From Oceanispirochaeta sp. (GTDB lineage: Bacteria; Spirochaetota; Spirochaetia; DSM-2461), in contig CAXXXD010000001.1 in assembly GCA_963663385.2 (NCBI GenBank), positions 480,001 to 544,000 of the forward strand: DNA of 64,000 nucleotides. The letters run 5' to 3'. The number at the start of each line of letters is the position of its first letter. The first letter of the stretch is position 1. Under the pieces are notes generated by a model. The model was given only the letters and a program-made list of their open reading frames with translations. It was not told where the DNA came from and did no database searches. Positions 30,896 to 53,155 of the stretch are shown piece by piece. A program made the translations under genes and the position numbers.

Positions 30896-31468
30896 TCAGC
30901 CTTTTTTTGTTTTGGCGTCTATACTCCCCATTATAACAAACCCATCGATGTGGATAAGGGGGCCGCTGCTTTCGGACTGTACTCTATTCTCAATAGATCC
31001 CAGGATGGGGACTCCCTTGGATGTTACCCGTACACCGGGAGGGAATTTCATCTCTATGCTGCCCATGAAGGCAAAGGCTTTTATGATGGTTGTTTCCGGG
31101 TAGAACCGGGCATCCCTGAAATCCAGGACCTGACTACCCAGTACGGCCGAGACATCCAGCTGTCTGGGTACATCCCACTGTCCTCGTCTGGTATTACTGC
31201 CCAGGAGTGTAAAAAAAGAGTCGCTCTCTATTTCACTCACCTGGAAATCTGCGGTTGTATGAGGCTGCTCATTCCCTTCAGGAAGAGGCAGGTCTTCCAT
31301 CAGAGAGAGGATTCCTGTTTTACCCTCTGTTCTGTTGAGAATATCCAGGCGCCTTTCCAGCTCTGTAATGGAAATATGGTTGTGCGCATAGGCCCACTGA
31401 AGCTGTTTCTCCGCCTCCTTCCGCAGTTCTTCAGTGCTGATATTCTGAAAATGGTGTAAAATGGGCAT
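30896..31468 (-). CDS. DUF1707/LiaF-like protein
   Basis: N-terminal LQWAYA..ISITELERRL; C-terminal beta-rich RRGQW..LDFRDA..FMGSIE..PPG. Confidence 0.7.
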   Translation of the reverse strand: MPILHHFQNISTEELRKEAEKQLQWAYAHNHISITELERRLDILNRTEGKTGILSLMEDLPLPEGNEQPHTTADFQVSEIESDSFFTLLGSNTRRGQWDVPRQLDVSAVLGSQVLDFRDARFYPETTIIKAFAFMGSIEMKFPPGVRVTSKGVPILGSIENRVQSESSGPLIHIDGFVIMGSIDAKTKKG

Positions 31469-31479
31469 TGTTAGCTCCT

Positions 31480-33405
31480 CTATTCGACGGGGAAATCAAT
31501 TAGAAATCCCAGGCCGCTTTCCATTTGCGTGTTTATCGTGATATTGCCTTTCAGTTTCTGATTAACAAGATTGTATACGATATGGAGTCCCAAACCGGTT
31601 CCTCCTTCTCCCCGGGCTGTGGTGTAGAAGGGTTCGAATAACTTGCCGGCCGATTCCTCATTAACGCCCTGTCCGTTATCGCTATAGTTCATAAGAATGT
31701 GATTTCCCTTCCGTTTACAATCGATACTGATAGTTCCCGAATCTCTGTTTTTAAATCCGTGTTTGATGGAATTCATAATCAGGTTGGATATTATCTGGGA
31801 AATGGTTCCCGGATAAGTTGTAATCTCAAGCTCTTCGGGACAGTTTACATTTATCAGACAGGGTTTCTTTTTCAGTTCCGGATGCAGGCTCTTTATCACT
31901 TCCTGAATATAACTCTTGAGGATAAAACGTCTGATCCCCTCATCCGATTGATCTACAGCAACCTGCTTAAAAACTTTGATCTGGCTGGCTGCTCTCTCCA
32001 GATTTGTCAGAATCATCGCAGATGATTCAACTGTGGTTTCCAGATAGCTATTGAATTCCTCTTCTGTGAGATTGTCCTCCTGAAGCATTTTCTGAATCCT
32101 TCTGGTTCTATCATCCAGATAGGAGGCGGCTGTTACGGATATACCAAGAGGGGTGTTGATTTCATGGGCAACACCCGCTACCAGGCGGCCCAGGGCGGCC
32201 ATTTTTTCGGATTGTATCAACTGCTGCTGAGTTCCTTCCAGATTTACAAGGAATTCTTCCATTTTTCCGGAGCGTTCCTCCACCTGTTTTTCCAGTTCCA
32301 GGTTTATTCTCTTCAGTTCCTTTTCTGCTGCCTTCAGCTTTGTAATATCCCGCCCTTCGGGCAGAATATAGAGTATTGCGCCTTTTTCATCCAGAATGGG
32401 AGTTATAGAGAAATCTACCTGAACCAGAGCTCCATCTGCATTGTTGTGAAAAGTGTTAAAGCGGACCGTTTCGCCTCTGTTGGCCTTCTGGATGGCTGTT
32501 TTCACCTTTTCCATCTCTTCCGTTGATTGAGACCACCAGGGCGTCTCCCAGAACTTCTTTCCAATTACATCCCTTTCGTTTTTTCCAATAAGGTCAAGAG
32601 ATTTGCTGTTTGCCTGAAGAACTGTTCCAGAGGGGTCCAGAATGCCCATAAACTGGAATGTATTATTGAAAATTCCTCTGAAGAGGAATTTCGTCTTCTT
32701 TTCTTCAGACTGAATGGAGAATCTTTCTTCCTCCAGTTTCAGTGTTTTTACAGAAGTGAAACCAAGAAGAAGAATCATTATGAAAAGGATAATAGCCGTT
32801 ATGTAGAGTATTTTATCTTTTATCTCTTCATTGGCGATCTCGAATTCATCCAGATAGATTCCTGTTCCAATTATCCAATCCCATGGTTCGAAAAGAGCAA
32901 CATAGGAAATCTTTTCAAAGGATTCGCCAGTGAGCTCTCTCTTCTGCCACATATACCGGACAAACCCCTGTCCATCTGTCTTTGCAATGGTAGTCATTTC
33001 ATTGAAAAGGCGTTTCCCTGAAGGGTCTTCGTATTCTCCGACATACATACCATTGAGATTCTTCTGGTAGGGGTGATAAATCATATCCGGCCTTGTTGTC
33101 GTAATCCAGAAATATTCGTCATGGTTTTCTCCATATCGAATATTGCCAATTACCTCTATTGCCATTCCTTTGGCTTCTTCTCTTGTATATTCACCGGATT
33201 GAACCTGTTTTTCATAGTTTTCAAGAATAGAGAGTGCCGACTGGACCATTTGCTTAACATGGCTCTTCTGTTTTTCCAGCATTACAGACTGCATTGTCGG
33301 AAGGAAAATTTTAAAAAAAATCAGGAACAGGAGCAGAATGCTGATTAAAATCGGGAGGAAGAAATGGATAAACCAGGTGGTTCTATGATCTCTCATAATA
33401 TACAA
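31480..33405 (-). CDS. Membrane sensor histidine kinase (single Cache + PAS + HisKA + HATPase)
   Basis: EYFWI..HP..FVRYMW..KISY..W.WIIGTG; GVAHEINTPLG; NLIMNS..H, DNGQG, FEPFYTT, GTGLGL. Confidence 0.92.
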   Translation of the reverse strand: MYIMRDHRTTWFIHFFLPILISILLLFLIFFKIFLPTMQSVMLEKQKSHVKQMVQSALSILENYEKQVQSGEYTREEAKGMAIEVIGNIRYGENHDEYFWITTTRPDMIYHPYQKNLNGMYVGEYEDPSGKRLFNEMTTIAKTDGQGFVRYMWQKRELTGESFEKISYVALFEPWDWIIGTGIYLDEFEIANEEIKDKILYITAIILFIMILLLGFTSVKTLKLEEERFSIQSEEKKTKFLFRGIFNNTFQFMGILDPSGTVLQANSKSLDLIGKNERDVIGKKFWETPWWSQSTEEMEKVKTAIQKANRGETVRFNTFHNNADGALVQVDFSITPILDEKGAILYILPEGRDITKLKAAEKELKRINLELEKQVEERSGKMEEFLVNLEGTQQQLIQSEKMAALGRLVAGVAHEINTPLGISVTAASYLDDRTRRIQKMLQEDNLTEEEFNSYLETTVESSAMILTNLERAASQIKVFKQVAVDQSDEGIRRFILKSYIQEVIKSLHPELKKKPCLINVNCPEELEITTYPGTISQIISNLIMNSIKHGFKNRDSGTISIDCKRKGNHILMNYSDNGQGVNEESAGKLFEPFYTTARGEGGTGLGLHIVYNLVNQKLKGNITINTQMESGLGFLIDFPVE

Positions 33406-50415: not shown

Positions 50416-51273
50416 TTACTGAGTAGATAATTCAGTATTTGTCCCGTTCTGAACTTTCGGGATATGACTGCTTATATTCGTCAGGGCATGCCCATTCTCC
50501 AGTAATGCTGTGGTGATATCCGGATTTGCTGCTTCCAGTCTCCCGACAGCTTTTTTAGCATCAAAAATATAATCCTTTTCTCCGCAAACATATGTCAGAG
50601 GGACTTTGAGGTTTTTCAGTTCCCTGTCAGTAAAAAGGGCCGGATTGTCCATCCGGTACCTGAAATGCCTGGTTAAAAGGACCTGGAATTGAACGACTTC
50701 TTCCGGAACCGGAGCTCCGTCAAACATAATAGACAATAATTTTCTTATTCCCTTTTCCCCCTGTATGGAATAGAAGATGGTTTTTATCAGGAATGATATT
50801 TTCGGCTTTACAATCCCGGTTGGAGCCAGAGCGATGACGCCGGCTGTTTTTTCCGGATAAGTCAGTGCATAGCGGATGACCGCCCACCCCCCAAGGGACA
50901 ACCCTCCCAGTAAAGGTTTATCCAGAGCCAGTCTATTAATGACTTCATCGAGCCATAGACTGAAAGTATCGCCTTTTGTATCAAATCTTACAGCTTCGCT
51001 TTTTCCCGGTTCTCCCGGAATATCTAAACTGTATACCCTGTAGCTCTGACTGAGTTTTTCCATATCTCCCATCCACGCCAGTGAATTGGATCCTGAACCA
51101 TGCAGCAACAGAAGGGGGGGATTTTTTTCCTCTCCTGCCGAAACAATGAATGTAGTGCCGTATTTTGTTTCTATGAAGAAATGCTCAACCAGGGGGAATT
51201 GCTCCAGCATGTTATTGTAAAACCGGAGAATGCAGTCTTTTCCCTTTTCTGTTCTGAAAATCTCTTTGTTCAT
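50416..51273 (-). CDS. Alpha/beta hydrolase
   Basis: LLHG, GLSLGG nucleophile elbow, GEKD, GH. Confidence 0.9.
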   Translation of the reverse strand: MNKEIFRTEKGKDCILRFYNNMLEQFPLVEHFFIETKYGTTFIVSAGEEKNPPLLLLHGSGSNSLAWMGDMEKLSQSYRVYSLDIPGEPGKSEAVRFDTKGDTFSLWLDEVINRLALDKPLLGGLSLGGWAVIRYALTYPEKTAGVIALAPTGIVKPKISFLIKTIFYSIQGEKGIRKLLSIMFDGAPVPEEVVQFQVLLTRHFRYRMDNPALFTDRELKNLKVPLTYVCGEKDYIFDAKKAVGRLEAANPDITTALLENGHALTNISSHIPKVQNGTNTELSTQ

Positions 51274-51332
51274 ATTTCTCTCCTATAAAAAGTCAATCAT
51301 AAGCCTATTAACAAGCTTACAATTGAACCGGA

Positions 51333-52445
51333 TTACCCAGTTTTTACGGCATTGAATGCAGCCGCCTGCATCTTCAAGTACTTATCATCCGGAACCATCT
51401 TCAACGGATCAAAGGGTTCACGGGTTTTCAATATGGAGTACACTACCGTACTCATCTTTCTTGCAGAGGCGATAATACTCGTGCCGCTGCCCTTGTTCTT
51501 CTTCATCGCTCTGTACTTCGTCATGATACGGTAATTGCCAGTCGTTTTCCGAGTTCTAACCATTCCCATAACACACTGAACAAATGCCGTTCTCAGTTCT
51601 ACAGCCCCTCTCTTTGTTATATGCCCATGATGAATCGTCTCATTGGAGTTCTGCACCCATGGTACAAGACCGGCATAAGCCGAATACTTCTTGGCACTGG
51701 CGTACCGCTTGATATCATCCGTATAGGCCCTAATAGTCGATGCCGTTATCAATCCGACTCCCGGGATCGTCTGCAATAACTGTACATCCTCATCTTCCTT
51801 TACAAGTTCCAGCAGGACTTTCTCTAACTGCTTGACCTGGTTCGAAACCTGATCTATCGTAGAAAGCAGCGGTTCTATCGCTTTGGCAGCGCTTCCGAAA
51901 CTCCTATGGTCCACGAGACCGATGAGGATGCGCTGCCTTTCTTTTTTACTCTGCAGCGCAGCTCTTTTTGTTTCAATTCCATACCCTAGAAGCAGTCCGT
52001 GAACCTGATTCTTCAAAGATACGACTGATTTAACAAGGATAGTTCTGGATTTAAGAACTCTACGGATATCCTCACTCTCCTGAGAACAAAGCTGTGATTC
52101 GGGAAGCATATCTTTTTCCAAGAACTCTGCTAGAGTTCTGGCATCATGCTTATCCGTCTTTTTCACTGATTCATTTACAACTTTGAATTTCAGTGTATTC
52201 ACAACCACCACCTCAATCCCTGCTAGCAATAGCTTGTTACGGAAGAACCGGGCATTTCCTGTTGATTCCACTGCAGCCCTAACATCAAGGCCCTCTTCTG
52301 TATAGGACACTGCTTTCTCAAGAAATGCTCTGTAACCGTCCTCAGAGGTCGGATACATTCCTGATTCACAAATGCTTCTATCATCACTCAGGAAACAGAC
52401 TGTTAACTGGGATTTGTGCAGATCCACTCCGATACTCATCTTCAT
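51333..52445 (-). CDS. IS110 recombinase/transposase
   Basis: GVDLHK, VEST, KTDKHDA (DEDD), IPGVG, AYAGLVP..NS..GHITKRG; start re-called to 52445 (or 52439) after ATAGGAG. Confidence 0.95.
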   Translation of the reverse strand: MKMSIGVDLHKSQLTVCFLSDDRSICESGMYPTSEDGYRAFLEKAVSYTEEGLDVRAAVESTGNARFFRNKLLLAGIEVVVVNTLKFKVVNESVKKTDKHDARTLAEFLEKDMLPESQLCSQESEDIRRVLKSRTILVKSVVSLKNQVHGLLLGYGIETKRAALQSKKERQRILIGLVDHRSFGSAAKAIEPLLSTIDQVSNQVKQLEKVLLELVKEDEDVQLLQTIPGVGLITASTIRAYTDDIKRYASAKKYSAYAGLVPWVQNSNETIHHGHITKRGAVELRTAFVQCVMGMVRTRKTTGNYRIMTKYRAMKKNKGSGTSIIASARKMSTVVYSILKTREPFDPLKMVPDDKYLKMQAAAFNAVKTG

Positions 52446-52459
52446 ACCTTCGCTCCTAT

Positions 52460-52645
52460 TGCCTAAAACAGCGCCTGTACGGTGAATTGATTCCATTCTC
52501 CTATCCGGTCTCGAAGACCATTGAATGTTTCGGTCACGGCTCTTCATTCTCCTGTACGGTCTCGGAGACCAGTAAAAATGGCGAACAGTAACCTGGCTGT
52601 TCTAAACGATGTTTAGAACATTGTATCAATCCACAAGCCTATGAA
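52460..52645 (-). ncRNA. Putative IS110 bridge RNA
   Basis: Perfect 10-bp 5' hairpin, then two duplicated stem-loops carrying target- and donor-matching 7-mers; RNA ends are approximate. Confidence 0.7.
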
Positions 52646-52699
52646 GACTTTTTATCATTCCTCCTGTTAATGCCGAATAATTCTGGTAGGGGGCATTTC

Positions 52700-53155
52700 C
52701 TATTCATTGGAATTGTCCTGCTTCAATAGCTGATCAATTATCAGCAGCAATCTGCTTACCAGCTGGGGAGATCCGTGAAATATAATTTTCCCCTTCAGCT
52801 CTTCTTCAAAATACATAAAATCAAATCTGCCTTGACCGTCTTCCGGGAGTTTAGAGTTCATTACTGCATTTATAGTATTGGAAATTCTCATAGCCTGATC
52901 CTTTCCTCCAATAAAACAATCAATAACCGCTGTTGTAAGAGGGGACTCCCTGATTTCAGAACTCTCCGGTGTATATTGTGGTGATTCCCTGATCTCTTCA
53001 CCTGTATACACGCTTAAATCGTGTCCGCTTATCCTGTAACTTCTACCGACTTTTGTTGCCGTTAATTTGCCCTCCCGTATAAAACGCTGGACTGTTTTTT
53101 CATGAAGTTGCAGCAGTTCTGCTGCCTGTGCAACTGTATACCAGACTTCTTTCAT
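52700..53155 (-). CDS. Excisionase-like (HTH_17) DNA-binding protein
   Basis: YTVAQAAELLQLHEKTVQRFIREGKL.A.KVGRSYRI. Confidence 0.85.
   Translation of the reverse strand: MKEVWYTVAQAAELLQLHEKTVQRFIREGKLTATKVGRSYRISGHDLSVYTGEEIRESPQYTPESSEIRESPLTTAVIDCFIGGKDQAMRISNTINAVMNSKLPEDGQGRFDFMYFEEELKGKIIFHGSPQLVSRLLLIIDQLLKQDNSNE

Follow-up and report, generated by a model that had tools for sequence, protein, structure and literature searches.

RNA-guided recombination by insertion sequences of the IS110 type is already known, and two groups of described elements stand closest to the one reported here. According to the excerpted accounts of IS621 on which we draw throughout (PMC11208160, PMC11208158), left guides precede and right guides follow the stem-loop in each of the two loops of its bridge RNA, the CT core is part of all four guides, and a promoter arises at the circle junction; in the target loop, A50-U58 form the left guide ahead of the stem-loop and G77-G80 the right guide behind it (Durrant et al. 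2024; Hiraizumi et al. 2024). Elements of the IS1111 family, again as portrayed in excerpts (Siddiquee et al. 2024, PMC11187229), have subterminal inverted repeats of 11-13 bp with a left extension of 7 bp and a right one of 3 bp, and their non-coding region lies downstream of the transposase gene with rare exceptions, for example ISMtsp17, that are left uncharacterised there. Many IS1111 orthologues place the donor nucleotides in a multiloop (Durrant et al., PMC11208160 section 12). Here, we describe a relative of these elements in a 64,000-nucleotide stretch of an Oceanispirochaeta sp. genome (assembly GCA_963663385.2, contig CAXXXD010000001.1, positions 480,001 to 544,000; hereafter the window). 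All coordinates are counted from the first letter of the window, and all features lie on its minus strand and are read in that direction. The 215-nt left end of this insertion sequence very probably encodes a bridge (or seek) RNA that guides the element's own DEDD recombinase, and the target loop of this RNA appears to read sites composed of a Shine-Dalgarno (SD) sequence, six nucleotides and a start codon.

The element occupies positions 51280-52660, 1381 bp when the shared core is counted once, and is found in ten copies of 100% identity in the genome. These boundaries were set by comparing the flanks of the ten copies and by an empty site on a contig of run X6 (another sample), in which 51279 is followed directly by 52661, with 1381 nt missing and 5 letters in common. 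Across the ten junction pairs only AGGAG is common, without target duplication beyond this short shared core, and the same comparison gives GAATGATAAAAAG as the start and GACTTTTTATAGGAG as the end of the element. Reading from 52667 to 51271, the host SD ACAGGAG is followed by the 215-nt non-coding stretch upstream of the transposase ATG, by a 370-codon gene, and by 53 nt after its stop codon that end in ATAGGAG; 6 nt past this end lies the ATG (51273) of an alpha/beta-hydrolase gene. The gene inside the element (51333-52445) encodes an IS110-family DEDD transposase/recombinase of 370 aa with the Pfam domains DEDD_Tnp_IS110 (PF01548, 74.8 bits) and Transposase_20 (PF02371, 69 bits). It scores 228 bits against the NCBIfam model NF033542 "IS110 family RNA-guided transposase" (cut-off 140) and matches the IS621 transposase in the PDB (E = 9e-16; phmmer 61.3 bits, mostly over residues 202-349), while BLASTP against the IS4321 transposase yields 78.6 bits and 31% identity over 237 aa, a score from a different program that does not directly rank the two groups. 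Residues D8, E60, D98 and D101 and the motif G259-P262-S267 are invariant in 22 relatives and are likely catalytic. By its DEDD and Tnp domains and its site-specific insertion with no more than a shared core, we assign the element, from sequence, to the IS110 superfamily.

A search with this protein scored 8000 candidates, of which 2922 matched at E <= 1e-30, and among the best 120 of these 2922 matches (the element's own protein aside) identity is 67-82%. Loci were taken from the 3 of 38 same-family genomes with a match, the genome studied here included, from genome contigs (49 further loci) and from the best 80 of 378 metagenome relatives, and 134 of 137 loci gave an N-terminal match. We left out the copies from the same genome (L002-L010) and duplicate loci (L014, L016, L018, L020, L022 and L024-L027) and dropped loci in which no left-end start could be recognised 195-260 nt upstream because the contig was short or the end divergent (e.g., L060, L061, L067, L068 and L074), which resulted in 87 distinct non-coding RNAs (ncRNAs) that form alignment A2. 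Guide-flank counts refer to 81 unique ncRNAs and right-end counts to 72 elements. The clade spans Spirochaetia, Desulfobacterales, Treponema and other metagenome-assembled genomes (MAGs), and the element ends are nearly invariant in relatives down to ca. 51% protein identity.

The candidate guides lie in two repeated units of the left end that had been picked out in an initial annotation of this DNA, the coordinates and strings of which all proved exact in a script check. Unit 1 (CATT-TTTACT-GGTCT-CCG-AGACC-GT-ACAGGAG-AATG; 52580-52545) and unit 2 (CATT-CAAT-GGTCT-TCG-AGACC-GG-ATAGGAG-AATG; 52527-52494) have their GGTCT arms 51 nt apart, and each contains a 7-mer that recurs at one edge of the element. 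ACAGGAG of unit 1, which we call the left target guide (52549-52555), forms the 3' strand of the target loop and has the same letters as the left target with its core in the host SD (ACAGG + AG; 52661-52667). ATAGGAG of unit 2, the left donor guide (52498-52504), equals the left donor with the core (ATAGG + AG; 51280-51286), which makes up the last 7 nt of the right end and forms the regenerated SD of the downstream gene. Both identities had been proposed in the initial annotation and are confirmed by the junctions of the ten copies and by the X6 empty site.

Across homologues, the 7-mer of unit 1 tracks the left flank and that of unit 2 tracks the right end. At positions -7 to -1, the left target guide equals the left flank in 68, 78, 77, 78, 81, 81 and 81 of the 81 unique ncRNAs, a value reached by 0 of 20000 shuffles (all shuffle tests reported here ignore relatedness among the elements and hence overstate significance). 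An eighth guide position (-8) was also considered and rejected, with 15 of 81 matches, which is the level expected by chance. Guides seen among the relatives include ACAGGAG, TCAGGAG (L012), AAAGGAG (5 of 6 copies in genome G020), TTAGGAG, GAAGGAG, CACGGAG (L148 and L154) and CACGAAG with a matching flank (L147), while other retargeted relatives carry GTTAGGAG (L077) or GTGAAGGAG (L085); almost all left flanks end in AGGAG. On the donor side, 70 of 72 elements have a left donor guide identical to the final 7 nt of their right end, and two elements with a right end in ATAGAAG carry ATAGAAG in the left donor guide, too. One of these two (L155) has GGAG in its target guide and GAAG both in its donor guide and at its right end, and the core or crossover is therefore limited to the last AG.

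The opposite side of the donor has a guide of its own. CATTC at the start of unit 2 (right donor guide; 52523-52527) is complementary to the right donor GAATG, the first 5 nt of the left end (52656-52660), and across the 87 ncRNAs these segments form 433 pairs over 435 positions (425 Watson-Crick, 8 wobble; 0 of 20000 shuffles). Besides GAATG/CATTC, we find the six compensatory types GTATG/CATAC, GCACG/CGTGC, GAACG/CGTTC, GCATG/CATGC, GGATG/CATCC and GAGTG/CACTC. If the transcript starts past the -10 box of the junction promoter described below, nucleotides 1-5 of the left end lie upstream of the transcribed part, and this covariation would therefore be one between RNA and DNA and not within the RNA. 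Covariation of guides with flanks and with element ends, together with the IS110-family protein, supports the original proposal of a programmable recombinase guide RNA of the IS110 type.

Alignment A2 also points to a conserved fold in which these guides would be presented. Its long-range closing helix, P0, joins GTGGATTGAT (52625-52634) to ATCAATTCAC (52482-52491), is paired in 86.9% of cases and shows changes on both sides at 10 of 10 pairs. The 5' stem-loop P1 (52598-52620; TGTTCTAAACATCGTTTAGAACA), a perfect 10-bp hairpin with a 3-nt loop that the initial annotation had already listed, is 76.3% paired, with 10 of 10 pairs compensatory. P2 closes the target-binding loop by pairing GGTTAC-T-GTTC (52583-52593) with GAGC-C-GTGACC (52532-52542) and is 96.4% paired. 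The hairpins inside the two units are P3 (TGGTCT-CCG-AGACCG, 52557-52571; 93.1% paired), where relatives replace GGTC/GACC with GATC/GATC or AGCC/GGCT, and P4 (TGGTCT-TCG-AGACCG, 52506-52520; 96.9% paired), where two pairs have both partners altered in 30-32 of 87 sequences. P2, P3 and P4 were found by RNAalifold with compensatory changes, and we added P0 and P1 to these. With all five helices, 89.1% of cells pair, compared to 27-47% when the partners are slid by 1-3 columns, and 365 cells show both-side changes versus 134 in shuffles, with 0 of 500 shuffles reaching 365. Folding the single sequence reproduces the hairpin and both units but is only mildly better than for shuffled sequences (z = -2.27; 6 of 200 fold as well). 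P2 closes unit 1 and P0 encloses unit 2, so that the target loop is an internal loop and the single strands of unit 2, the donor site, lie in a multiloop.

Two other pairings were tried and rejected. CATT/AATG might have served as the closing stem of both units, but among relatives AATG can have A, T, C or G as its second base, with no compensating change. The 3' arm of the first hairpin might have paired with the 5' arm of the second, which would have placed ACAGGAG on the 5' side as in IS621, but the two hairpins change independently and each is paired with itself; for example, L042 has GGTC/GACC in unit 1 and GATC/GATC in unit 2. The two units look duplicated because the left target and left donor 7-mers differ by a single base, and the repeated layout behind the earlier idea of an internal duplication is indeed present; such a duplication is nonetheless indistinguishable from a shared constraint, with hairpins that serve the same recombinase and vary independently. 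Some relatives carry natural inserts in the RNA, i.e., a 21-nt hairpin-like insert inside or just after the left donor guide (L130-L132 and L149) and larger inserts in the terminal loop of P3 (L102 and L071), and these appear to mark positions of the RNA that tolerate extra sequence.

All ten copies sit in an SD upstream of an open reading frame (ORF) of 98-689 codons, which bears out the suggestion that the guide is aimed at SD sequences. Their left flanks read ACAGGAG (8 copies), GCAGGAG (1) or AAAGGAG (1), their right flanks consist of an A/T-rich spacer of 6-8 nt and the ATG that opens the ORF, and the transposase gene is co-oriented with this ORF in 10 of 10 cases. Throughout the genome, only 146 of 1462 occurrences of ACAGGAG lie in such an SD-like context, defined as an ATG-ORF within 2-12 nt after the 7-mer. 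The 5' strand of the target loop, GCCATTTTTAC (52572-52582), has the complement GTAAAA-ATG-GC, and this right target guide (CATTTTTAC) seems loosely complementary to the spacer and start codon right of the core. In the window, the right target comprises the spacer AGAAAT and the ATG of the alpha/beta-hydrolase gene (51271-51279), and 6 of 9 positions equal the guide complement with the ATG in register, the last guide nucleotide being set opposite the first nucleotide after the core. Cognate flanks give 249.8 pairs with the right target guide versus 217.1 for shuffled flanks (0 of 3000 shuffles), and the guide complement of nearly all SD-targeting members consists of 6 variable A-rich nucleotides followed by ATG. 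The initial annotation had regarded the guides for the opposite side as partial matches, with CATTC for the donor and TTT for the target; the former is a real guide, as shown above, and the T-rich strand of unit 1 behaves as a loose guide that would read the spacer and ATG. We had at first set aside this anti-ATG reading in view of the spacings of 6-8 nt in the genome studied here, and reinstated it after the family-wide listing and the tests of spacing and site occupancy given below.

From these data it seems that the target loop reads sites of the form SD-N6-ATG. We consider it possible, though short of probable, that this amounts to a distinct bridge-RNA architecture in which the target loop reads the whole initiation region, the SD is swapped, a host promoter is borrowed, and a competing pairing of the 5' hairpin ties translation of the transposase to the fold of the RNA. 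The SD may then be read via the 7-nt left guide and the spacer and start codon via the loose right guide with its anti-start-codon CAU; the gene may be kept translatable, with the element always in a transcribed leader and in sense direction.

The alternative that survives best also assumes a bridge RNA, but one in which the 7-nt left target guide alone picks the target and the SD-ATG context comes from selection: insertions into coding ACAGGAG would be lost, and those that restore an SD would be tolerated. We take this to be unlikely, though deserving of serious attention. About 90% of genomic ACAGGAG sites lie outside an SD context, where insertions would mostly break genes, and the complementarity of the right target guide is weak and A/T-rich as spacers generally are. 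However, occupied sites match the right-guide complement at 5.4 of 9 positions, compared to 3.06 of 9 at the 146 unoccupied SD-like ACAGGAG sites of the same genome, and matches at 5/9 or more are found in 9 of 10 occupied versus 34 of 146 unoccupied sites (Fisher p = 3.7e-5). Similarly, the ATG lies exactly 6 nt past the core in 43 of 84 distinct flanks versus 21% of SD-like sites in the genome studied here, the one genome that provides this background (p = 8e-10). A retargeted clade, which has moved to non-SD sites, also speaks against target choice by the left guide alone: the CAT that is conserved in SD-targeting members is lost there, AATG is kept, and in 5 of 7 elements the 5' strand agrees with the new right flanks at 6-7 of 9-10 positions (the exceptions being L154, with 5 of 8 on a truncated flank, and L065, with 2 of 10), although this is a weak test in that non-cognate pairs within the clade reach up to 7. 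The members L145, L147, L148, L153, L154 and L155 of this clade have 54-58% protein identity, the guides CACGGAG, CACGAAG or AGGGGAG, and no CAT. Their right flank often repeats the left-target 7-mer 1-2 nt past the right end, and that of L145 is the left end of another copy in a tandem arrangement.

Several observations weigh against a bridge RNA that reads the entire initiation region. Support for the right target guide is modest (ca. 3.6 versus 3.15 pairs of 8), its two positions adjoining P3 carry no signal, the spacing may also be 5, 7 or 8 nt, and the background for the spacing test stems from a single genome. The conserved CAT could in part be structural by pairing with the AUG of the AAUG that lies 3' of the left guide, which would equally suit a target choice by the left guide alone. 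Pairing with the AG core was looked for in the right donor and right target guides and was seen in neither, unlike in IS621 as described in the excerpts cited above. With regard to the RNA itself, the 5' hairpin P1 competes with a long-range alternative that is better paired across the 87 relatives (88.1% versus 76.3%), and no Rfam family matches the region: a scan of 51000-53000 with E up to 10 gave three matches at the level of chance (E = 5-9), all outside 52446-52662. Finally, many relatives share AAAGGAG-type guides and flanks, and in MAG OY776510 as many as 9 of 15 left flanks read ATAGGAG opposite the guide TTAGGAG, a mismatch at -7. These copies (L028-L041 and L047) have in their ATAGGAG flanks the donor 7-mer, and four flanks share at least 12 nt with the right end of the element itself, which suggests insertion beside right-end remnants or into donor-like sites.

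The left end could instead be a mere regulator in the 5' untranslated region of the transposase mRNA that acts on translation or stability and has no role in site choice. This alternative, which we regard as very improbable, draws on the competing pairing just mentioned: the segment directly 5' of the transposase SD (52463-52472) pairs with the 3' arm of P1 (52605-52596) with 8 of 9 pairs compensatory, and such conserved long-range pairing looks regulatory. P1 and this pairing are mutually exclusive, and the latter crosses P0; the two states may act as a switch through which the fold of the RNA influences translation of the transposase, or the arrangement may be a pseudoknot. Yet a leader regulator gives no reason for loops that track the host flank, the first 5 nt of the left end and the last 7 nt of the right end, and the protein belongs to an RNA-guided family. 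The likely extent of the transcript also speaks against it. Joining the right end to the left end in silico creates the candidate promoter of an excised circle, with TTGACT, 17 nt, and TAAAAA with TG (9 of 12 matches). TTGACT as -35 box overlaps the right subterminal inverted repeat GACTTTTTAT (51285-51296), and TAAAAA as -10 box forms the first 6 nt of the left subterminal inverted repeat ATAAAAAGTC (52645-52654), its reverse complement, with TG 1 nt upstream. Of 72 elements, 70 contain TTGACT, and TGATAAAAA is kept in 77 of 87 ncRNAs; the hexamers overlap the inverted repeats, so that the conservation of what is a match in sequence has two possible causes. If the transcript starts past this -10 box, nucleotides 1-5 of the left end and the entire right end would be outside of it. 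A promoter scan of the integrated left end found no minus-strand promoter. At nucleotides 33-41 of the left end (52628-52620), TGATACAAT resembles an extended -10 box, and TGATATA is kept in many relatives. This segment overlaps the 5' strand of P0 and is probably not the main promoter because a start behind it would exclude P0 from the RNA.

It is also hardly credible that the units are binding sites for the transposase on duplex DNA, with the 7-mers as a protein-read motif of ends and target. The units are repeated, and AGGAG is common to target, donor and both units, as this view would have it. However, P0, P2, P3 and P4 keep pairing through the excess of both-side changes given above, and a folded single strand is therefore expected rather than a protein-read duplex motif; furthermore, the right donor guide is the reverse complement and not a copy of the left-end nucleotides. 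Chance recurrence of short 7-mers in an AG-rich leader has a negligible probability: ACAGGAG and ATAGGAG occur 19 and 17 times on both strands of the window, so that a lone 7-mer match would prove little, but the matches exceed chance by their equivalent places in the two units, by the defined junctions and by covariation across 81 relatives, and the compensatory guide/left-end types refute chance as well.

Measured against the excerpted accounts of IS621, a bridge RNA in the left end of our element would share several traits with it. The RNA lies upstream of a recombinase with DEDD and Tnp domains; left guides correspond to the top-strand sequence with the core and right guides to the top-strand complement; the joining of right and left end in the circle restores a promoter, here as a match in silico; and there is no target duplication beyond the shared core. 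The modules also follow the same order (5' stem-loop, target loop, donor loop), with the qualifications that the donor strands lie in a multiloop and that the 5' hairpin has a competing pairing. This order had been the basis for proposing an IS621-type layout, and this part of the proposal stands; the guide order within the loops does not, being the reverse of that in IS621, with right guide, hairpin and left guide in each module. Further differences are right guides without a core complement, donor guides in a multiloop closed by a long-range helix instead of a simple internal loop, a core of AG instead of CT, a subterminal inverted repeat of 10 bp versus 2-3 bp, a target in the SD-N6-ATG region versus a repetitive extragenic palindromic (REP) sequence, and left target and left donor 7-mers that are only one base apart.

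By contrast, the guide order resembles that of the seekRNAs of the IS1111 elements ISEc11, ISKpn4 and ISPa11, for which the excerpts of PMC11187229 place the top-strand complement 5' of the bottom-strand match, provided that "top strand" there is the sense strand of the transposase gene. Additional IS1111-like traits are a perfect or near-perfect subterminal inverted repeat (ATAAAAAGTC/GACTTTTTAT; 10 bp here and up to 14 bp in relatives), a circle junction that makes a promoter (again in silico), donor guides in a multiloop, and terminal extensions of 7 bp on the left (AG + GAATG) and 3 bp on the right (AGG) when the AG core is taken as part of the left end, which is our own assignment. Different from the IS1111 family as described in these excerpts, the RNA and the long non-coding region lie upstream of the transposase gene instead of downstream, and the core is not shared between the top- and bottom-strand matches. 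The element thus appears to encode a bridge/seek RNA in a hybrid layout, with IS1111-like guide order, inverted repeats and multiloop and an IS110-like position of the RNA upstream of the recombinase gene. RNA-guided recombination of this sort is known, as noted at the outset; it is the layout and the target that are unusual.

Insertion at an SD and start codon has a precedent in the mycobacterial elements IS900 and IS901, which, as cited in the relevant excerpt of PMC2942039, insert between the SD and the start codon in Mycobacterium avium; IS900 belongs to the IS110 family according to an excerpt of PMC8141618. The likeness is one of description only, and our element differs from IS900 in that its transposase gene points the same way as the target gene and that the host gene has its SD rebuilt. 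The insertion site of IS900 and IS901 is said to go back to work by Doran and colleagues from 1997 and by Inglis and colleagues from 2003, and IS900 reportedly, going by the title of the former, makes use of host signals for a gene that lies opposite the transposase gene on the other strand. Our literature search, outside of which lie the supplements of bridge-RNA surveys that possibly list this clade, found no RNA-guided account of SD targeting.

Taken together, we propose the following cycle. Excision would yield a circle that joins the right end to the left end and thereby creates the promoter described above (TTGACT, 17 nt with TG, TAAAAA), from which the RNA and the transposase gene would be transcribed, as we infer from the work on IS621 and IS1111. 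With recombinase dimers holding them in place, the target loop would sit on an SD-N6-ATG site and the donor strands would sit on the circle junction, and strand exchange would occur at the AG core. Because the right end terminates in ATAGGAG, insertion would swap the host SD for an equivalent one, and because the target is asymmetric, the element would always come to lie in a 5' leader and in sense direction to the gene. Read-through transcription supports excision in IS621 (excerpt of PMC13626964). In our element, host read-through transcription could likewise supply the RNA and the recombinase for excision.

The copy in the window sits between two genes, one for an HTH_17 regulator (52700-53155) and the alpha/beta-hydrolase gene (50416-51273), both on the minus strand like the element. 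The stop codon of the HTH_17 gene lies 32 nt before the target SD, and the two genes may formerly have been one operon. Within the right end, just before the regenerated SD, a terminator-like hairpin (51326-51293; 15 pairs, 3 of them G-C) is followed by CTTTTTAT and, if working, would limit read-through into the downstream gene. In a tblastn search of 72,556 plasmid records, the sole close match is the 32.8-kb plasmid NZ_CP035808.1 of Thiospirochaeta perfilievii, where a transposase gene at 31089-32186 is 75% identical; others are named generically "IS110 family transposase". Because of this gene, we conclude that the clade can travel on plasmids.

Recombinases with bridge or seek RNAs are being engineered as programmable tools for DNA insertion, and the element described here would add a compact natural RNA (ca. 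155 nt from P0 to P0) with a guide order opposite to that of the solved IS621 RNA and an IS621-like upstream position, which suggests that the order of the guides is not tied to the location of the RNA. The ten copies and the dozens of naturally reprogrammed relatives form a data set for mismatch tolerance, for a very short left guide and for a loose right guide. Reading the target from the RNA also offers a possible explanation for the older reports of IS110-family insertion between SD and start codon. For the family itself, a preference for SD sequences that is readable from the RNA, in an element that rebuilds the SD it interrupts, would represent a low-cost insertion strategy.

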